A stretch of 64,000 nucleotides of DNA from a virus (lineage: Duplodnaviria > Heunggongvirae > Uroviricota > Caudoviricetes), in the IMG/VR virus record IMGVR_UViG_2630968933_000007, positions 1 to 64,000 of that record; one strand, given 5' to 3'. Under the pieces are notes generated by a model. The model did not search any database. It had not been told where the DNA came from and saw nothing but the letters and a program-made list of their open reading frames with translations. Of the stretch, positions 1,649-59,300 are shown one piece after another. Positions within the stretch are counted from its first letter, which is position 1. Every line of letters begins with the position of its first letter. Position numbers and translations under genes: made by a program.

Positions 1649-3594
1649 GATTTATCACCTCCGAAATTTTCAAGCCTGTTGGCAATCATGATGGCGATAT
1701 CAGGGATTGCTGGCGCTGTGGCTATACATGCGGGGTTGGCGCACAAACCATAGACGGCGGCAATCACGAGCTGTCTTTTCCAGTCGAGAGTTACTGGCTC
1801 AGAATTGGCGTCATCGCCGGACGTATCACTGCCTGGCTCGTTCTGAACAACGGTTTCGCCCTCCTGAGCGGCATCAACAGAGTTTTCCTGAATGATCTTC
1901 TCCTCAGTTTTTTTTTCCAGCTCCGGTTGCGCTACTGGCCCTGGCTGTTGCTCTTCTGACCCGTTTTGTTGCGTATCCGGGCTGTTTTGTCCCGCTTCTG
2001 GGGCAATTTGTTCCACTTTGGACTGATTCTGGTCCTCAGTGTCGCGAGTCTGGATCCCCTTCACCCACTTCGGATCAGCAGGGTTACTGATGCCTTCAAC
2101 GAATTCTCCACGCGAGGCAGCCAGTAATTTGTCGGCATCGACTGGATTTTTTGGGGGGATGTTTTCCCTGGCTTTATTGAGTTCCTCCCTCAGTTCCTGG
2201 TATTTCGTTTCTACAGATGAGACATTTTCCAGTGATTGCGTGTCCTCATTATGTTTAACTGGAATTTCTTCCACTGATTCAGGCGCTGCCTGTTCATTAG
2301 CCATTGTGTCCGATGCTTGTTGCTTTTCTTCATCGCCATGTTTTCCTTCTGCTGTTCCGCGCTGCGGCATCGGTGCTGATGAGCGACCGCAGGCAATTTC
2401 CACGATTTCCGGATCCGGGTTAGCGTGATCGGTTTCGGTCAACACTTTGTTGAGATATTCAGTCACGCGTGCCGGGATGGCCTCAATGCCGATTGGTGCT
2501 TCTTTCACGGAAGCCACCACAATGGCGCGGGAATAATCCAGCCCACCGGGCATGGCGATAAATTTGTCGCGAAAAACAGAAAAGGGCGGCTTATTCTCTG
2601 ACACGATTTCTTCAACGCGTTTTGCGTGTGCTGGGTGCAGGTTATAAATATCCACATCCATTGAACGGGCCAGAACGCCGGTGGCTACATCTCGTGCGAG
2701 TGATGTCTTATCATGTTTGAATCCTTCACCACGATCGGTAAGATTTCCGCCGCCAGCGTTAGCACCGGAAGGCGTACGGGTAATGCCTGAAACATAATTT
2801 CCGTTCTGCCATTCTTTTGTCAGCAGGCCCTGATCAAGGTAGTCAGTTTTCATCCAGGTGGAAATGAACTTGTCGAATTCAGCCGGGCTGATGCGATGAT
2901 TTGCAGAGTGGGGGAATGCTTTCCCTACAGATTCAGCCAGGCGACTAAGGTGATAGTTCGTCAGTTTATCCAGTTCATGATGTGCGGCGCGCACAGCAGT
3001 AAGCAGGCTCTGAAGGTAACTGTCCTCTGTGTCCATCTCCATACGGATCACGTTATTGCGTTGTTCTGGTGTGGCGTGATGCCGGTATTTTCCATCTTCA
3101 TCCTTGCTGAAGAAGAAGAGGTGAAGGAAGCGATGAGTAAGGCTCAGAGTGGCGACGGGAATTTCACACTCAGAACAGTCATCGTCGCTGTCCGGGGATT
3201 CGCTTTTCTCCACATCATCCGGAATAGTTCCGTCCGGGTCATCGTTGTCATCGCCAGCAGTTGTGGCATCTTCACCGTTGATGTTGTCATTGAAGGATAT
3301 AGCCATCATGGTGATGCCATCTTCCCCGCCTTTTTCATAGCGGTTGCAGAATTCAGTATCAAACACGCCTTCCGGTGGAAGGTCATTCACGACGGGGAAA
3401 TTTACGCGAACGGGTTTTTTGAAATCATCCTCGTCGTAGCCTGCATCGTCCATGGCTGCAATGCAGCGGGAAACTGCGACAGAAAGTTTTCTGGCCTCGG
3501 TCCAGAAAAAACCGCCTTTGATGCCAAGGCGTTTTCTGACTTTATCGTTTTTTGCTTCGCAGTGTAGTGCAAAAGTCTGTTTATCAGCGCTCAT
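1645..3594 (-). CDS. Hypothetical 649-aa early-left-operon protein, highly acidic segments, no recognised domain
   Basis: Long ORF translationally coupled to gam (ATGA overlap at 1645-1648); Asp/Glu-rich stretches ([30 protein letters not shown]). Confidence 0.65.
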
Positions 3595-4171: not shown

Positions 4172-4411
4172 TCACAACGACGCTGCTTTTACGGGTAAGC
4201 CATCGCGCCCGATGAAAACTTTAATCATGCAGTCGGTAATGCATGTTTTTGTTGTGAAGTTACGAATATAGAGTTTTCTCTTTTCAATATTGTTTGCTGA
4301 AGCGATATATGTCCGACCTTCATGAAGAACATAATCGCCAGGCGTCACGCACTGACGTGGTATTTCATCAGTTCCGAAGTGATGAGCAATCATAATTATC
4401 TCCATTTTCAC
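4172..4411 (-). CDS. Hypothetical small protein
   Basis: 79-aa ORF in pL operon orientation. Confidence 0.45.
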
Positions 4412-4574
4412 AAATGAACTTTGTTGATGCGGTGCCTGGTACCTCCAGGTGACGTTAACCAGTTAACAACTAACGCCGGGTCAGGGGACGATGACTTTCC
4501 GTGACATCCTGTCGGTTTAACTGTTCCGCGTGCGCATAGCCGCATTCACCGCATCACAAAATTCACTTTAAAAA

Positions 4575-4610
4575 GGGCGGACATCAGCAATCGGCAAACC
4601 GATGTCCGCC
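4575..4610 (-). terminator. Intrinsic terminator (10-bp perfect stem ggcggacatc/gatgtccgcc, U-run on minus strand)
   Basis: Perfect inverted repeat, followed on the minus strand by cttttt. Confidence 0.55.
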
Positions 4611-4849
4611 AAGGGCTACACACAGCAATGTTGTTATTCACAACCGGAAGCGCACGGTCGAAGAAATCTAACGACAAGCCTTCAATGGGAAAGAGTCTTC
4701 GCCGTGCACTTTCGTGTTGTACCCTGGCTTTCAGGGGAATGTCTGTTCAGTAAACTGAGAGTGCCGGAACTCACCCGTGTCCGGCGCACGATCTCCACCT
4801 CACCCGTGGAGAACTCCTCAACTACAAACCCCGTAAGGAGAGTGAATTT

Positions 4850-5059
4850 ATGACACAAGAAGAAAAAGTGATGTTTCTGATGCGGCTGGCTGTCGATACC
4901 TACAACACACAATTCAGGGAGAAAGATATACCTCAAAAGGCAGTTCCTGCCGCGGTAGATAAGGGCGGTGCTATTGCCGTATTTTACGATGTATTTGAAT
5001 CATTTTTTGATGAAAAACTCGACGCTGTTAGCGACTTCGGAACATCGAGTAATAAATAA
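4850..5059 (+). CDS. Hypothetical small protein on opposite strand within the early-left region
   Basis: 69-aa ORF with strong SD (aaggagag) 7 nt upstream of ATG. Confidence 0.4.
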   Translation: MTQEEKVMFLMRLAVDTYNTQFREKDIPQKAVPAAVDKGGAIAVFYDVFESFFDEKLDAVSDFGTSSNK

Positions 5060-5408
5060 CGTTCATTACGGTTCTTAAACAACAATCAGTGGGCTTGATG
5101 TTGTTCTTTTCAAGCTCACTTGCCATCAATTCCATTATTCTTGCGCTTACACGAATTATTTGGTGGCTGTAAGCGACGCAACTGTCGCTGATATTGCTGT
5201 TTATTTCTATTACTTCATTTTCACCATTAGCATCAACTTCAGATGCGCTGTTTTCATTATCCTGTTTCAGTGCTTTTTCTGCCATCTGGATGCGTGTCAG
5301 CGTTGCGGAATTTGGGCTAAGTCGATAAACCTGTTTGGCATCTTCCAGAAGCAGGGCGATAATGTGCTTCAGTTCTGTTTCGTTCATAGTTAACTCCGGT
5401 AGTTGCAA
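5028..5408 (-). CDS. Hypothetical protein
   Basis: 126-aa ORF in pL operon. Confidence 0.45.
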   Translation of the reverse strand: MQLPELTMNETELKHIIALLLEDAKQVYRLSPNSATLTRIQMAEKALKQDNENSASEVDANGENEVIEINSNISDSCVAYSHQIIRVSARIMELMASELEKNNIKPTDCCLRTVMNVIYYSMFRSR

Positions 5409-5418
5409 TTTATTAATA

Positions 5419-6135
5419 TCAGGCGGTCAGCTCTTTAAGCTTCTGAACTGCTTTATTCATTTCATCCATACAGTCGATGAATTCGTCCAGTTTAAGCTGC
5501 ATTTTTCCGGCGGCCTGAAGAATTTCAAGTTTTAAGGGCGCAAGTTTTTTGTTGAATTCATCATCTTCCTGGCGTTTTTTCTCCGCAATTTCGGCGGCTT
5601 TCAGCAATTCTTCAGCCTGTTTTCTGAGTATTTCTGGTGAAGGTGAAACTGCTTTGAGGTTATTCACTTCAGGTTCCTGTTGTTGCAGAATTAATTTGTT
5701 GCATTCTCTGCGTGAGCGTTTCATTGCAGATTCGCACTTCTTGCAATAAATGGCTCTCCCGTCACGCTTGCTGGCATCTGAATAAAAATCATTGACTGAT
5801 TTTGTCTGCCCGCATCTGGTACATAATTTTGATTGAAGGTCCTTAATGATTGTGACGTTTCCTTCCCGCTTGGGATATCCATATTTTTTGTGGCGTAAAA
5901 AGGTTACTCCGTTACCAGAACCTTCTTTTCTGACCTTAAATACAATGATGCTTTCCCGTTTATCGATAAAATCGATGAGCTGGTTTCTCTCCTTTCCTGA
6001 CAGTTCGGCAAATGTCTTAACTTTTTTAGTAACCTCAGTAAGGCGAACGCCGTCAGGCATTTTTTCAACGAAGTTTTTAATCTCTGCAAGCGGACGCCAT
6101 AATTTTTGCGGCAAAACTGAAGGCGTGGTCATCAA
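5419..6135 (-). CDS. Hypothetical protein with CxxC...CxxC zinc-ribbon and C-terminal coiled coil
   Basis: 238-aa ORF; motifs CTRCGQ...CKKCE. Confidence 0.55.
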   Translation of the reverse strand: MMTTPSVLPQKLWRPLAEIKNFVEKMPDGVRLTEVTKKVKTFAELSGKERNQLIDFIDKRESIIVFKVRKEGSGNGVTFLRHKKYGYPKREGNVTIIKDLQSKLCTRCGQTKSVNDFYSDASKRDGRAIYCKKCESAMKRSRRECNKLILQQQEPEVNNLKAVSPSPEILRKQAEELLKAAEIAEKKRQEDDEFNKKLAPLKLEILQAAGKMQLKLDEFIDCMDEMNKAVQKLKELTA

Positions 6136-7812: not shown

Positions 7813-8529
<717 letters not shown>

Positions 8530-8535
8530 TTAAAT

Positions 8536-8601
8536 CTATCACCGCAAGGGATAAATATCTAACACCGTGCGTGTTGACTATTTTACCTCTAGCGGTGATA
8601 A
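8536..8601. promoter_or_regulatory. OR3-OR2-OR1 operators with PRM/PR promoters
   Basis: tatcaccgcaagggata (8536-8552), taacaccgtgcgtgttg (8560-8576), tacctctagcggtgata (8584-8600); PR -35 TTGACT 8574-8579, -10 GATAAT 8596-8601. Confidence 0.9.
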
Positions 8602-14142: not shown

Positions 14143-14463
14143 GAGAGTAAACATAACAAATTTGTTATATACATTCAAGGTATGTTGACGACAACACATA
14201 TCCGGGATTATATTCTTCGCACGCCAGCAAAATCTGGCGTCGGGATTAGGAACCCCGGATATTCAACCGCGACAGACACACGCCGCGAGCGTGTTTTTTA
14301 TTGTCGTATGCACACGCACATCTGAATTATGGTGGGGCGTATGGGGCAGCCGAAAGGCTGGCCGGTTGGTTGATCCGGTAGTTCCTAACCCTGTACGTCT
14401 CGCCACCCGATGATTAGGAACCTGACGGTGGTGATAGTTTAGAAACCACTCGAGGGCGTCATT

Positions 14464-16658: not shown

Positions 16659-16893
16659 TATTCAGCAGGTGCCTGAACGCATGGCTTTATTCAGGTCGTC
16701 TGGAAAAGCGCATGAGCAGCGTAATAGCGGAGTTCATGGCGAAGAGTATATGAACAGATTATTCGAATGCTATATGAGACTGAAGCACGGAGATCGCTAT
16801 GACCTGACACGTGATGCTGACGGTTTCTACTGCCGTGAAGTTGTGAAACGAATGTTTGAAGTGTGGTGTCATTGTAAAGGATGGGGGCTGTGA
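16651..16893 (+). CDS. Hypothetical protein (start overlaps ninH stop; stop overlaps next start as TGATG)
   Basis: 80-aa ORF from ATG 16651 (MRDIQQVPER...). Confidence 0.4.
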   Translation: MRDIQQVPERMALFRSSGKAHEQRNSGVHGEEYMNRLFECYMRLKHGDRYDLTRDADGFYCREVVKRMFEVWCHCKGWGL

Positions 16894-17507
16894 TGCGGCT
16901 AACCCCAGTATTCGGCATGGTTAACTTTATTAATGATGCTCATTTCCGCCGCATATGGAGGCATCCGAAGAAAATCATTAACTCTCGTCAGAAAGCATGG
17001 GTTCACTACATGCTACAGGTATGGGGAAATGTTAACGCTGGTGATGATTCTCCTTGTGGTGCAATTAACGTTATTGGGCGACTGATGATTCGCAGTCAGT
17101 GGAGCGATGACAAAGCTAAGCAGATTGAGTCTGTTGTCATGCGTCTGTATGAAGAAGACGGACTACGTGGAGATGAACTCCATCAGAAAGCCCGAGAACT
17201 GGTCATCCCTCAGTCATCGGCAGGTAATATCATTGCTCTCGCCAAAGAATCCGATGATGCTGCTTTCGTTGAACGTGTGATGGTTGAGACCTTTCATCGT
17301 GAAAGCCCTGTCCGTGATGTAGCTATTAGGCGATATTGCAATCGCGACAGCACGCAAGATATCGCCAGGATGATTTCTCAGATAACAGGAGTTGATATTC
17401 AGTATTGCCGGAGGCGGGTCGTGTGGTGCGAGAGGGTCCTTGATTCAGAAATGTTTTATGCAATGAAGCGAGAATTGGAGAAAGAACTTCTAGTGATTGC
17501 TGGATGA
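16893..17507 (+). CDS. Putative late-gene antiterminator Q-like protein (assignment by position)
   Basis: 204-aa ORF immediately upstream of late promoter/terminator region; no sequence-level family match claimed. Confidence 0.4.
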   Translation: MRLTPVFGMVNFINDAHFRRIWRHPKKIINSRQKAWVHYMLQVWGNVNAGDDSPCGAINVIGRLMIRSQWSDDKAKQIESVVMRLYEEDGLRGDELHQKARELVIPQSSAGNIIALAKESDDAAFVERVMVETFHRESPVRDVAIRRYCNRDSTQDIARMISQITGVDIQYCRRRVVWCERVLDSEMFYAMKRELEKELLVIAG

Positions 17508-17531
17508 TGCAAAATATTTTTTGTAAATGCG

Positions 17532-17560
17532 TTGCTTTCGAGAAATGAAAGTAGTATGTT
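17532..17560 (+). promoter_or_regulatory. Putative late promoter pR' (-35 ttgctt, 17-bp spacer, -10 tatgtt)
   Basis: Promoter-like hexamers ~110 nt upstream of tR'-like terminator. Confidence 0.3.
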
Positions 17561-17668
17561 TTGTGTATGCTCGGAGCAAAAGCGCACTGAGAAGCGAAAG
17601 AGAAATCCTGATTTACCTCGGTCGTCGATAATATTTAGGATCGGCATACTGGCTAGATTAGGTAAAGG

Positions 17669-17695
17669 CCTCGGCAGAAATGTCGGGGCTTTTTG
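17669..17695 (+). terminator. tR'-like intrinsic terminator
   Basis: 7-bp stem (cctcggc/gtcgggg with G-U pairs) + cttttt; followed by sequence matching lambda late leader (gcacaacaggtaagagcattga). Confidence 0.55.
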
Positions 17696-18040
17696 TTTGC
17701 ACAACAGGTAAGAGCATTGAACCCGCAGACCTCGTGGAATTGGTGAAAGGTGTGCGCAGTGCTCTTATCGTTGTGGTGAAGCTCAATGGCGAGCTAGCAG
17801 ACAGGCGACTGTGAAAATACTAGTCATGTAGCGGATCGCCGCGCGTATTGTAATCGGCAGCGCACCGATGGGAGCTGGTTCGATTCCGGCCGCCACAATC
17901 CAAACTGAGCCGTAGCCTCTGGGTGTCCTGAATTCATCAGTGATAGTTACGCTGCGGCCTTCTACATACGATTTTTGTGAAAAGCGGGTGGCAAGAGGCT
18001 GCGAAATTTTTAAATACCTCACAATTCCACAGCTTGATGA

Positions 18041-18235
18041 TTGTCTGGCTGCCGGAGAATTTGTTAAAAATTGCATCGCGTGGTGAATCCCCCTCAGCGG
18101 CGGGGCATCTGGCAAAGTGTATGATCCAGCGAACATGCAAATTCAGTAGCCAGGCTGAATTTACCGGGAGGCACCTGGCACCATGCGACAGACAGAAATT
18201 AGGCTATACTTCAGCCCCTCTCCGGAGGGGCTTTT
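18041..18235 (+). ncRNA. Candidate small RNA unit 1 (promoter-like ttgtct-N17-ttaaaa to UCCG-loop terminator)
   Basis: No ORF; promoter-like hexamers 18041-18069; 8-bp stem agcccctc/gaggggct with tccg loop at 18213-18232 + T-run. Confidence 0.3.
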
Positions 18236-18426
18236 CTGTGCAGGATGTGTCACAGTTTCCTGAATTCTGAGTACTGTCCTGTTACTCAGGGTGCTATATT
18301 TTCTGACGTGATGAAAGTCTGCCGGAAGGCGGAACGTATCGGAAATGACCCAGTAGAGAAAACGTTGACTCAGATACCGGTGCTGAGTTACCGGGAAACC
18401 GGCATCACATGACCGCTATCCTTCCA

Positions 18427-18449
18427 GGCTCGCTCCGGCGGGCCTTTTT
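18427..18449 (+). terminator. Intrinsic terminator (ggctcgc-tccg-gcgggcc + T5) of a middle small unit
   Basis: 7-bp stem incl. one G-U, UCCG loop, ttttt. Confidence 0.5.
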
Positions 18450-18509
18450 ACTGCAGAAAACAGTTTTCCCGTAAAATGCCACGTTACTCACAATTCAGGC
18501 TGGCGATTA

Positions 18510-18720
18510 TTGTCTGGCCAGCGGGAAGTTTGTTAAAAAAATATGGCATGGTGAATCCCCCTGTGCGGAGGGGCATATCAGCGACAGGTGTTTGGTCACA
18601 CCCCTTATCCTTTCTGGTGCGGGTTCAGGTGCTGATACTGAACTCACCGGGAGGCACCCTGCACCATGCATGAACGGTACATAGCGCTACTCTCCAGCCC
18701 CTCTCCGGAGGGGCTTTCTT
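18510..18720 (+). ncRNA. Candidate small RNA unit 2 (paralogue of unit 1)
   Basis: Same promoter architecture 18510-18538, conserved blocks (tggtgaatccccct, accgggaggcacc), same terminator hairpin 18696-18715. Confidence 0.3.
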
Positions 18721-18957
18721 GTTGGATAAAAAAAAGCCCGCGCCGGGAAGCGCGGGTGGCAAGGAATAAACAACAAAACGTGAAGTGATCAATTTTCAGC
18801 TGGCGAATAATACCTGATAGTAATCACTCTGCGCAACTGTATGGTCTTTTTCGTATTGCGGGCTGTAGTCATCCTCCTGTTTCTGAACCCTTGTCCATGA
18901 CTGACGTCAGCCCGCACCTTATCTTGATTGCATACACTATCCCTGCCGGGAGGAATA

Positions 18958-20931
18958 ATGGCATTTAAACACTATGACGTGGTCAGGGCATCATCGCCGT
19001 CAGACCTCGCAGGAAAACTGACGCAAAAACTGAAGGAAGGCTGGCAACCCTATGGTAGTCCGATTATCTCAAACGCGGGTTATGGTGCTGAATTTATCCA
19101 GGCTATAGTCGCTGAAGGGGATATGACCTCTCCGGTAGTTTCACCGGGGGGAGATGGTACCCGGACTGTTGTTGTTGAACCAGAATATTACTTTGTCATT
19201 GCGCTGGCCGGACAGTCAAACGGCATGGCGTATGGTGAAGGCCTGCCGCTGCCGGAGACATATGACCGTCCGGACCCGCGTATTAAACAGCTGGCGCGTC
19301 GCAGTACGGTGACACCGGGTGGTGCGGCCTGTGCATATAACGACATCATTCCGGCGGACCACTGCCTGCATGATGTGCAGGATTTGAGCCGTTTTTCTCA
19401 TCCGAAAGCCAGCGCAGAGCAGTATGGGTGTGTCGGACAGGGATTGCATATTGCCAAAAAGCTGTTGCCCTTTATGCCGGAAAATGCGGGTATTTTGTTA
19501 GTGCCGTGCTGTCGTGGTGGGTCTGCGTTTACAGCCGGTGCTGACGGAACGTTCAGTGAAAGTTCAGGAGCGTCGGATAAATCTGAACGATGGGGCGTTG
19601 ATAAGCCGTTGTATAAAGACCTGCTGACACGCACTCAGGCCGCGCTGAAGGCAAACCCCAAAAACATACTGCTTTGTGTTGTCTGGATGCAGGGCGAGTT
19701 TGATTTAAAACAGGGAGCGTACGCCAGTCAGCCCGCCATGTTTGATGCCATGGTGGAAAAATACCGTTCTGACCTGGCGGGAGTATCCGGTCAGTGCGCT
19801 GGTGCTTCTCCTTCTCTGGTGCCCTGGATTTGTGGTGACACGACGTACTACTGGAAGGAGACGTATTCAGCGCAATACGATGCCGTCTATGGCGCATACA
19901 AAACCAAAGCCGGTAAAAATATCTTCTTTGTGCCGTTTATGATGGATGACAATGGTCAGAAAGTCGGGACCAATGAACCGTCAGAAGACCCGGATATTCC
20001 GGCTATCGGGTATTATGGTTCCGGTGGACGAACGGATGCGAAGAGCTGGACAACATCCGATCGTAAAACCCACTTTGGTTCATGGGCGCGTCGCGGAATT
20101 ATTTCCGACCGTCTGGCAACAGCCATTCTTCTGCATGTGGGCAGAGTGGCAGATTTTGTTTCCGGGAAAGTGACAAAAGCCGCGGTTTCTTCAGGCGGAG
20201 GCGTATCGCAACCAGCACAGGAGAGTGGCGATACTCAGCCTGAATCCGTTGTCCCGACAAAGATACAGTCAGTGCTGGCTTATGATGCGAATGCGGAAAA
20301 TGCCGATCTGGCTTCGCAGGGCTGGACGCTGACAGATGTCAAAAACACGCTGGTCAGTGACAGTGGTTCAGGTAAAAAAGCCCTTCGTCTTGAAAAACCA
20401 GAAAATGGTCTTGCACAGAAAAAGACCTGGAAAGTATCGCACGCAATTGATGCCGGTAAGGGGAAGGAGCTGTTCGATAACGGCGGTGAAATCACGCTGC
20501 GCTTTAAAATCCCCGATGATGTATCTCTCAATGCTTCTGCAAATCAATATTCTGCGGGTATTTACTGGCGCGGTAGTGGATGGCCGGGAGCGGAATCAGA
20601 GGAGGGTTATATTGCGGCCTTCTATCTGCAGACTGATAAAACAAACATCAATGTGATGTATCATGCAAACACCACATCACAGCGGCTTGGTAGTTATGGT
20701 CCGTTCGATCACGACTGGCACACGCTGACTTTCCGCTTCCCGGGTGGTGGCTCGCTGAACGTCACGCCGGTGCTTGATAATGCAGCAGGAAAACCGTTTA
20801 CGCTGACCAGATGGACGAATGCAGCCTTTGAGGCCAACGCGCTGGCAATTACGGATATTACCGGAAATGCGGCAACTTACCCTGTGCTGATTGAAAGTCT
20901 TACTGTTGGTGTGAATGCCGTAGCAGCATAA
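18958..20931 (+). CDS. nanS: Prophage sialate O-acetylesterase NanS-p-like (DUF1737 N-terminus + SGNH hydrolase)
   Basis: N-terminal MAFKHYDVVRASSPSDLAGKL...; SGNH block ALAGQSNGMAYG; position downstream of Q as in Stx phages. Confidence 0.8.
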   Translation: MAFKHYDVVRASSPSDLAGKLTQKLKEGWQPYGSPIISNAGYGAEFIQAIVAEGDMTSPVVSPGGDGTRTVVVEPEYYFVIALAGQSNGMAYGEGLPLPETYDRPDPRIKQLARRSTVTPGGAACAYNDIIPADHCLHDVQDLSRFSHPKASAEQYGCVGQGLHIAKKLLPFMPENAGILLVPCCRGGSAFTAGADGTFSESSGASDKSERWGVDKPLYKDLLTRTQAALKANPKNILLCVVWMQGEFDLKQGAYASQPAMFDAMVEKYRSDLAGVSGQCAGASPSLVPWICGDTTYYWKETYSAQYDAVYGAYKTKAGKNIFFVPFMMDDNGQKVGTNEPSEDPDIPAIGYYGSGGRTDAKSWTTSDRKTHFGSWARRGIISDRLATAILLHVGRVADFVSGKVTKAAVSSGGGVSQPAQESGDTQPESVVPTKIQSVLAYDANAENADLASQGWTLTDVKNTLVSDSGSGKKALRLEKPENGLAQKKTWKVSHAIDAGKGKELFDNGGEITLRFKIPDDVSLNASANQYSAGIYWRGSGWPGAESEEGYIAAFYLQTDKTNINVMYHANTTSQRLGSYGPFDHDWHTLTFRFPGGGSLNVTPVLDNAAGKPFTLTRWTNAAFEANALAITDITGNAATYPVLIESLTVGVNAVAA

Positions 20932-58351: not shown

Positions 58352-58600
58352 GATGACCTCCTTTGGCTTTTTTCGAGAAATGCCACCACAAGATGTGGTG
58401 CCGGGAGGCTCGAAACGGCCCAAAAGATACCGCGGACTTATTCCCCTTGCGGGTGTTGTATTCGTCGCCCTCCCGACATTGATCGGGGATGTGACCGCAC
58501 ACTGTGCTATCACTGAATAACAGGCATAAAAAATCCAACACTGACGGGGTTGGTTTAATCCGCTTTTGGGAGGTTTTCGAGGCCTCGGCGCGGAGTATAG

Positions 58601-58885: not shown

Positions 58886-59300
58886 GATGACCTCCTTATT
58901 TGTTTAGTTTATAACCGCCAGTTAGTAGCTGGCGGTCGGGTGTCAACTGAGCCAAATAAGAAGCTCTGGGCATATTCCCCTTGCGGGTGTTGTATTACGC
59001 CTCTCCACCCGACCTTTGTACGGATGTAACTATGCCAAATTGCAGGCATAAAAAAGCCGCAAAGCTATCGGGTGCGGAGACCGCTTATTTGTTCAGTGCG
59101 ATCAGTATGCGATAGCTCTGGCGGATTTGTCAAATCGTGCAGTAACATCCTTTTCTTCCTTGCCATTTCTCAATGATGACAAAGGGTGGATTCGGATTGG
59201 TATTGGGACAAAAGTGAGACACACAAAGCTTTGCATCGGCTTACAAAGCTTTGCATGTTTTTCAATGTTGGGACGTGTGAGCGCAGAAATGACGGGCTAT

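Follow-up and report, generated by a model that had tools for sequence, protein, structure and literature searches.

Organization of the Region and Identity of Its Outer Units

The DNA analysed here, called the window throughout, is a stretch of 64,000 nucleotides from a virus of the Caudoviricetes (IMG/VR record IMGVR_UViG_2630968933_000007, positions 1 to 64,000). Between a late leader and a nanS-p gene, at 18041-18760, it carries an array of three promoter-to-terminator units without a credible open reading frame (ORF), following one another in tandem within 700 bp. An earlier reading of the letters alone (hereafter, the original prediction) had proposed these units as candidates for prophage-encoded small RNAs (sRNAs). 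The two outer units, 1 and 3, are laid out as follows, P1 to P5 being the helices of the predicted RNA.

18041-18070 (+): promoter-like element of unit 1, with a −35 TTGTCT at 18041-18046 and an extended −10 TGTTAAAAA at 18062-18070; predicted start at ~18078
18078-18240 (+): predicted RNA of unit 1, a canonical STnc100; P1 18078-18085 with 18179-18186, P2 18089-18105, P4 18139-18162, P5 18164-18178
18187-18240 (+): 3′ part of unit 1; linker (presumed seed) 18187-18212, terminator 18213-18232, U-tract to ~18240
18510-18539 (+): promoter-like element of unit 3, with a −35 TTGTCT at 18510-18515 and an extended −10 TGTTAAAAA at 18531-18539; predicted start at ~18546
18546-18724 (+): predicted RNA of unit 3, a canonical STnc100; P1 18546-18553 with 18662-18669, P4 18621-18645, P5 18647-18661 (one mismatch)
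18670-18722 (+): 3′ part of unit 3; linker (presumed seed) 18670-18695, terminator 18696-18715, U-tract to ~18722

The Rfam scan that had been suggested as a check was run on the whole window, and it matched both units to RF02076 (STnc100, “Gammaproteobacterial sRNA STnc100”), whose curated gathering threshold is 47 bits: unit 1 scored 138.7 bits (18048-18241) and unit 3 scored 129.9 bits (18517-18726), each over model positions 1-206 with E ~1e-30. Units 1 and 3, which score above this threshold, are members of STnc100. A covariance model of our own, R1, made from the 32-sequence alignment described below and trained without unit 2 and without the PasD RNAs discussed further on, gave 145.5 bits to unit 1 and 182.9 bits to unit 3.

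The two units have in common the element TTGTCT-N17-TTAAAA (18041-18069 and 18510-18538), the blocks TGGTGAATCCCCCT (18081-18094 and 18549-18562) and ACCGGGAGGCACC (18163-18175 and 18646-18658), and a 20-nt hairpin, AGCCCCTC-TCCG-GAGGGGCT, identical at 18213-18232 and 18696-18715 and followed each time by a T-rich tail; the promoter-like element, the internal blocks, and the UCCG hairpins had all been described in the original prediction and are indeed where it placed them. A search of the window for the two-block pattern gave two occurrences, where 0.00 were expected. Folded as a single sequence, unit 1 gives the helices of the family, with a z of −3.1.

A Conserved Domain and a Variable Linker

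Family members were gathered with a gapped pattern from viral contigs and completed with confirmed matches from Klebsiella, Raoultella, Kosakonia, Phytobacter, and Atlantibacter; the resulting fold alignment holds 32 sequences from E. coli prophages and these five other enterobacterial genera, mostly below 92% pairwise identity. The scan of genome contigs (596 Gb) relied on a gapped pattern of 18 specified bases, too loose for such a volume, so that most of its 120 loci are chance occurrences; eight enterobacterial loci were confirmed by Rfam and three more (L076, L105, and L114) via nhmmer.

RNAalifold, applied to the 32 sequences independently of Rfam, returned P1, P2, P3, P4, P5, and the terminator, the same helices as those of the family. 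P1 is a long-range helix in which GCAUGGUG pairs with CACCAUGC, enclosing P2 to P5; P2 is a hairpin (CCCCC/GGGG), P3 is short, P4 is a variable hairpin, and P5 is an invariant hairpin (CCGGG-AGGCA-CCCGG). Standard pairs fill 96.8% of the cells, against 39-48% when the partners are slid by 1-3 columns; changes on both sides of a pair (compensatory changes) are seen in 20 of the 37 pairs, against 4-9 in the slid controls; and 0 of 500 shuffles reach the observed pairing and compensatory values. These figures show a conserved five-helix 5′ domain closed by P1 in STnc100, and the covariation analysis across related prophages, also suggested at the outset, supports a conserved fold. Within the domain, blocks such as GGUGAAU and CCnGGAGGnACC are near-invariant.

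The linker, between the 3′ strand of P1 and the terminator, behaves quite differently from the domain: it is 15-26 nt long and hypervariable with near-invariant flanks, and at least 13 discrete cassettes were counted among 73 full-length copies. Tandem layout is common in the family; arrays of 2-5 STnc100 copies were found within the first 100 viral loci (e.g., L175, L128, L133, and L141), and the 86 loci with nhmmer matches comprise eight S-M-S arrays, three S-S, one S-S-S-S, and one S-M, where M stands for the type of unit 2 and S for the canonical type. Tandem copies that differ mainly in their linker suggest a route for a prophage to diversify the specificity of its sRNAs. Adjacent paralogous sRNA genes sharing a conserved part and differing elsewhere are also found in OmrA/OmrB and PrrF1/2; in OmrA/B, it is the seed that is conserved, whereas the window units conserve the structured domain and vary in the presumed seed.

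Some viral contigs have four or five consecutive STnc100-type copies (L175 at 4351-5522 and 8353-8560, L128 at 2260-3380, L133, and L141), and some array copies consist of the core domain only (model positions 31-144).

Published Relatives

In EDL933, 11 STnc100 copies are transcribed, one of which (STnc100_4) was confirmed by Northern blot (PMC5331693). One STnc100 copy, 75 nt downstream of stx2B, has been found to overlap EcOnc27/sRNA103, an sRNA bound by Hfq (PMC12370729, PMC12711010). EcOnc27 is bound by Hfq in enterohaemorrhagic E. coli (EHEC), where its 247-nt form is destabilised without Hfq (Tree et al. 2014), and we found that the Northern probe used for it in that work is the reverse complement of the P1-to-linker sequence of STnc100. 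Likewise, EcOnc05 in prophage Sp4 of EHEC Sakai coincides with a 138-bit STnc100 copy, and both EcOnc27 and EcOnc05 are Hfq-associated sRNAs seen on Northern blots in Sakai. The window units share with these two loci their helices, their terminator, their position, with the late leader or moron slot on one side and nanS-p on the other, and a convergent partner; they differ in that a single copy is present there and three tandem copies here. The linker cassettes of EcOnc27 and EcOnc05 also differ from those of the window units; the linker of unit 1 resembles the EcOnc27 cassette and that of unit 3 is EcOnc05-like, unit 3 as a whole being 81% identical to EcOnc05 of Sakai Sp4. With Rfam membership for units 1 and 3, covariation, and homologues that are bound by Hfq and seen on Northern blots, the proposal of small RNAs at this place is supported.

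PasD1 and PasD2 of enteropathogenic E. coli (EPEC) E2348/69, homologues of EcOnc13, are abundant RNAs detected on Northern blots, with many partners in RIL-seq (which ligates and sequences interacting RNAs) (PMC8550237, Pearl Mizrahi 2021). They have in common with the window units the 5′ end (GCAUGGUGAAUCC), the P5 block, and the position upstream of an esterase gene; they differ by another 3′ half, with a seed CCUUGUGAG upstream of the terminator that the window units lack. Their scores are 38-41 bits against STnc100 in Rfam and 51-52 bits with R1. A blastn comparison of PasD1/2 with the window gave no match, and the units are not PasD genes. A common ancestor of PasD and STnc100 has already been proposed and the association with the sialate esterase gene noted; according to the same authors, PasA and PasD copies are dispersed and not in tandem (Zhu, Shabalina & Storz, bioRxiv 2026). 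In the window, PasA is absent downstream of nanS-p.

Publications already cover the STnc100 family, its location beside stx and nanS-p, and its convergent partner; the finding is known, then, because the family is curated and published, in a published architecture, and the case shows that reading the raw sequence can recover real sRNA genes. The unannotated subtype of the middle unit and the domain shared with the kil/dicB leaders may be less known; together with the linker cassettes in tandem arrays, they could be of interest to prophage RNA biologists.

Unit 2, a Divergent Middle Paralogue

Between the outer units, the original prediction had reported a third terminator with a UCCG loop, at 18427-18449. 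The terminator exists, with slightly different limits, and it is not isolated, as it belongs to a whole homologous unit with its own extended −10.

18292-18450 (+): unit 2, “M-type” paralogue; extended −10 TGCTATATT at 18292-18300, P1 18306-18313 with 18403-18410, P2 18318-18333
18367-18425 (+): unit 2, continued; P4 18367-18389, P5 18391-18402 (GAAA loop), linker 18411-18425
18426-18450 (+): unit 2 terminator; hairpin 18426-18445 with the same UCCG loop as units 1 and 3, T-run to 18450

Searches by nhmmer with units 1 and 3 as queries did not recover unit 2, for which a covariance model was required. In a permissive Rfam scan, unit 2 (18277-18452) matched STnc100 over its full length with 28.1 bits and E 9e-4, under the gathering score, and this match makes all three units homologous; R1 gave 43.9 bits (E 3e-8), and nhmmer tied unit 2 to other family copies with E 3e-4 to 7e-3. 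Unit 2 is, thus, homologous to the family yet outside the curated STnc100 boundary, as PasD is, and an annotation based on Rfam would label two of the three units while the middle one escapes the threshold.

Could unit 2 be a decaying pseudogene copy, which would leave two functional units only? Its score under the Rfam gathering threshold and its lack of the invariant blocks of STnc100 speak in that direction, as does a C-A mismatch in P1 of the window copy that is not present in the other variant of the unit. Against decay stands what the unit has kept: in its single-sequence fold, every helix of the family is present, together with a strong terminator, and the extended −10 TGCTATATT is positioned for a start at P1. 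The two natural variants of unit 2 differ in P2 by pair-preserving substitutions only (U-A to C-G, U-G to U-A, and C-G to U-G). The unit, unannotated, is present in 673 of 5426 complete E. coli genomes (~12%, about one in eight), and among the viral contigs sampled its type was found only in S-M-S or S-M arrays, flanked by different canonical copies. We, thus, read unit 2 as a maintained divergent paralogue and regard decay as rather unlikely.

Late-Operon Context and Convergent RNA

The neighbours of the array, and the RNA that faces it, are the following.

16881-17507 (+): Q-like antiterminator gene, placing the array in a late-operon context (phrog_753, “anti-termination protein Q-like”, E 3.5e-68)
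17667-17699 (+): terminator-like hairpin with a T-run downstream of Q, presumed from its sequence to be tR′ of the late leader
18729-18930 (−): putative convergent RNA, homologue of EcOnc08/21, with a terminator at 18756-18737 and a T-run to 18729; from conservation and a probe match
18958-20931 (+): nanS-p-type sialate O-acetylesterase gene (ATG 18958; Pfam DUF1737, SASA, and DUF6645), the downstream neighbour

The order in the window is, thus, Q, the presumed tR′, a tRNA-like remnant, the three units, the minus-strand RNA, and nanS-p; in an Stx2a phage, tRNAs and stx2AB are followed by a single STnc100 copy (159 bits), then by this minus-strand element and nanS-p. The setting of STnc100, with a Q-like gene upstream and nanS-p downstream, recurs in that Stx2a phage and in Sakai Sp4. 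The window differs from the stx locus in having upstream a tRNA-like remnant only, with no stx or tRNA genes. The original prediction had put the units at the moron site equivalent to stx: they are indeed the constant neighbour of the slot that holds stx and tRNA genes, but not its occupant, since in Stx phages the STnc100 copy lies directly downstream of stx2B; the units, therefore, adjoin the moron slot, neither filling it nor replacing stx. A terminator scan of 17400-19100 returned 11 sites, against 1.2 ± 1.0 in shuffles.

A 901-bp query (17900-18800) is 99.9% identical to Escherichia phage PhiR5_2 (PV340546), in which the matching stretch is annotated with hypothetical proteins only. Of 5426 complete E. 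coli genomes, 2967 match the same query to some extent, and ~249 contain at least 80% of it.

The tRNA-like stretch (17772-17898, +) sits where Stx phages have ileZ-argN-argO; it has good acceptor, D, and T arms, with 74 nt in place of the anticodon arm. ARAGORN called no tRNA there, the Rfam tRNA score is 26.5 bits (under the threshold of 29), the fold is unremarkable, and the stretch does not resemble the ileZ/argO region of EPEC PP6.

The end of the region as first delimited, 18041-18760, does not belong to the three units, which are themselves present: 18729-18756 is the 3′ end of the separate minus-strand RNA. Many prophages have this element, with 80-90% conservation across more than 200 nt. 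A Northern probe published for EcOnc08/21/42 is an exact match to Sakai Sp4 (L246, 2012-2046) and agrees with the window at 18806-18840 in 29 of 35 bases, and EcOnc08/21 of Sakai Sp4 gives a band of ~271 nt (Tree et al. 2014). By its sequence, the predicted minus-strand RNA is homologous to EcOnc08/21/42 and occupies the same convergent position; an EPEC RIL-seq candidate homologous to it has the same 3′ end. If it were, by analogy, ~271 nt long, it would reach ~19000 and be antisense to the ribosome-binding site (RBS) and start codon of nanS-p.

“Convergent sRNAs” between the moron coding sequence and a conserved downstream ORF at PR′ were described by Tree et al. (2014). Here also a sense sRNA would face an antisense one between the moron slot and the downstream ORF; the difference is that the minus-strand partner of the window is not of the AgvB/AsxR type. 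Indeed, Rfam gave no match to AgvB or AsxR (RF02702/RF02703) even at E 10 (116 bases), the published AsxR sequence is unrelated, and the 42-nt conserved 3′ region of these RNAs (...GUAUCUCAUGC..UUGCCCGAACCCACUCGGGCUUUU) is not found in the minus-strand RNA; identity with Esr41 was likewise rejected. A candidate minus-strand promoter, TTGCGC-N18-TATTAT at 18836-18807, is doubtful, because the published probe places that stretch inside the RNA.

Proposed Function, 5′ Ends, and RNA Sizes

We consider it very probable that the region is a tandem array of three separately terminated sRNA genes of the STnc100 family, canonical for units 1 and 3 and divergent for unit 2, immediately downstream of a lambdoid prophage's Q/PR′-tR′ late leader and facing a convergent minus-strand RNA before nanS-p. 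By analogy with the family, each unit most likely encodes an sRNA of the Hfq type. It would be driven by a sigma-70 promoter with an extended −10 and give an RNA of ~150-180 nt, made of the five-helix 5′ domain, a single-stranded linker of 15-26 nt, and an intrinsic terminator with its U-tail. To judge from the EHEC and EPEC relatives, Hfq probably binds the terminator and U-tail, and the variable linker is probably the seed, pairing with mRNAs or other sRNAs; as the linkers differ between units, the three RNAs would have three different target sets. In the lysogen, each unit's own promoter would supply the RNA; once the prophage is induced, polymerase modified by Q would continue through the units into nanS-p and the lysis genes.

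The promoter assignment can be examined across the family. TGnTAAA is found at a fixed distance from P1 across genera, and the divergent members of Klebsiella, Raoultella, and Phytobacter have TTGAAA/TTGACG-N17-TAAATT/TACATT at the same distance in unrelated surrounding sequence; canonical −35 and −10 elements at a fixed distance from P1 in divergent genera place the start at P1. In RNA-seq, PasD2 begins with the first P1 base (PMC8550237). This 5′ end agrees with the promoters of the divergent genera, and both support the promoter assignment.

A further conserved element lies upstream of the promoters.

18018-18027 (+): conserved upstream block CTCACAATTC, kept upstream of most E. coli-type copies
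18487-18496 (+): second copy of CTCACAATTC

In most E. coli-type STnc100 loci, this block, CTCACAATTC(AGG), precedes P1 by 55-60 nt; a repeat scan also found inverted copies of it at ~17926-37 and ~18259-73, flanking unit 2. CUCACA is also the target motif reported for PasD. Two resemblances picked up by eye only, a CRP-like half-site in the upstream block and CCGGGAGG common to P5 and the nanS-p RBS, are statistically unconvincing.

Several observations weigh against the interpretation as three such sRNA genes. A start at P1 predicts RNAs of 157-186 nt, and the bands published for the homologues are longer (~222 nt for EcOnc05 and ~235/247 nt for EcOnc27; Tree et al. 2014); the real 5′ end may, thus, be near CTCACAATTC, ~55-60 nt upstream, in which case the “promoter” would fall inside the RNA, although forms starting at P1 and at CTCACAATTC may both exist. 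Unit 3 has a mismatch in P5 and an ordinary fold energy (z −1.2), although its fold alone still gives the family helices. One has to keep in mind, too, that expression of the window units is argued from the homologues EcOnc27, EcOnc05, and STnc100_4, and that the putative seed role of the linker draws on PasD, in which the seed sits elsewhere in the RNA. Lastly, the 5′ domain also occurs as an mRNA leader without a terminator, so that it may act in its own right in a way for which the seed model gives no explanation.

A Terminator-Less Copy of the Domain before kil

The leader in question is found in the window itself, on the minus strand.

4403-4584 (−): fourth copy of the STnc100 5′ domain, without terminator, in the kil leader (R1 53.2 bits, E 2e-10)
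4172-4394 (−): kil gene, FtsZ inhibitor (ATG 4392; phrog_294, E 1e-37)
4575-4624 (−): weak DicF-like match with a terminator hairpin at its end, at the place occupied by KilS in K-12 Rac (DicF 29.5 bits, under gathering)

This copy, which scores 28.3 bits against STnc100 in Rfam (under gathering), is placed between the DicF-like match and the RBS and ATG of kil, and it has P1 to P5 with compensatory differences (P1 GAUGCGGUG/CACCGCAUC; P5 CCUGG-AGGUA-CCAGG). The same domain is present in K-12 Rac between kilS and kilR (52 bits) and in the Qin-type prophage PP6 of EPEC between the 3′ end of a DicF-like element and dicB (62 bits). A second viral scan yielded at least 79 distinct versions of the leader; the upstream partner varies, and the gene downstream is kilR, dicB, or a third ORF. 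Of 5426 complete E. coli genomes, 4614 match the kil-leader stretch of the window. When the sRNA and leader types are put into a joint alignment, 97.8% of the cells pair, against 31-39% when slid, but this alignment was fitted to the model, so that its pair counts are biased towards structure.

The leaders of kilR and dicB, downstream of KilS/DicF, thus, share with STnc100 its five-helix domain, with compensatory differences; they differ in having no terminator, in being followed by an RBS and a cell-division-inhibitor gene, and in belonging to the early-left operon. In the open-access literature, we found no paper noting a relationship between STnc100 and the kilR/dicB leaders; as far as we found, the domain, standing at the head of both kilR and dicB mRNAs, ties together two prophage loci that are well studied but had apparently not been connected before. 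In the 190-nt DicF species, it is the 5′ end that RNase III generates; the idea of a cut by RNase III just 3′ of DicF is wrong, and we make no RNase III claim for the domain.

We tentatively suggest, as a possibility that we would not put at even chances, that lambdoid prophages use the STnc100 5′ domain as a mobile structured RNA module in two settings, namely sRNAs with a linker and terminator (STnc100, PasD, and the middle-unit subtype; often in tandem) and terminator-less kilR/dicB leaders. If true, the domain would act in its own right, e.g., in stability, in processing, or through a protein partner, and the sRNAs and the leaders of toxic genes would share an origin and possibly a regulator.

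Alternative Explanations for the Array

The same observations allow a different account of the array, in which the functional part of the RNAs is the 5′ domain and not the linker, as a mobile structured module that would serve, e.g., as a protein-binding, stabilising, or processing element. Its strength is that the domain precedes kil here, kilR in K-12 Rac, and dicB in EPEC PP6 with no terminator and the RBS directly after it, that it pairs as well as it does in the joint alignment, and that GGUGAAU and CCnGGAGGnACC are near-invariant. Against it, the fitting of the joint alignment to the model counts here as well, and the many trans targets of PasD in RIL-seq make base pairing real for at least one branch of the family; the domain account and the seed idea are compatible with each other. 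We regard this account as improbable.

The RNAs could also be sponges (anti-sRNAs) that sequester core-genome sRNAs, as AgvB and AsxR of this moron region do, instead of regulating mRNAs. EHEC prophages encode anti-sRNAs whose 5′ ends vary at the same position, and this class features modular variable cassettes; the units, however, share no sequence with AgvB or AsxR and have no match to them in Rfam, and we give this possibility little credit.

Slightly less credible still is that the units act mainly in cis, as serial terminators that reinforce tR′ and, in the lysogen, shield nanS-p and the lysis genes from transcription that has not been antiterminated, with short RNAs as by-products. Three strong plus-strand terminators do lie between the late leader and nanS-p, a fourth faces them, and all are inside the Q-dependent late transcription unit. 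A hairpin alone would, however, suffice for termination, whereas a multi-helix domain of 100 nt is kept upstream of it, with covariation, across genera; each unit has a promoter-like element, and the homologues are abundant Hfq-bound RNAs. The cis and sRNA roles are, moreover, not mutually exclusive.

Finally, the region is almost certainly not the degenerate remains of a protein-coding gene: mechanical calls do give ORFs of up to 117 aa (97 aa on the plus strand and 117 aa on the minus strand, both across unit 1), and PGAP calls hypothetical proteins across homologous PasD loci, but Pfam and PHROGs searches with all local ORFs gave no match, and family members differ by indels of arbitrary length and base-pair covariation, without codon-like patterns. 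The original prediction, which had seen no credible ORF and had named degenerate copies of a known gene as the finding that would speak against it, holds on both points.

Other RNA Families in the Window

The window has four more Rfam matches above gathering, all outside the regions discussed so far. An isrK match (14221-14299, +; 68.9 bits) is directly followed by a C4 antisense RNA (14325-14410, +; 67.5 bits), and two sRNA-Xcc1 matches (58392-58477 and 58926-59014, both on the minus strand; 73.4 and 69.1 bits) lie ~530 nt apart.

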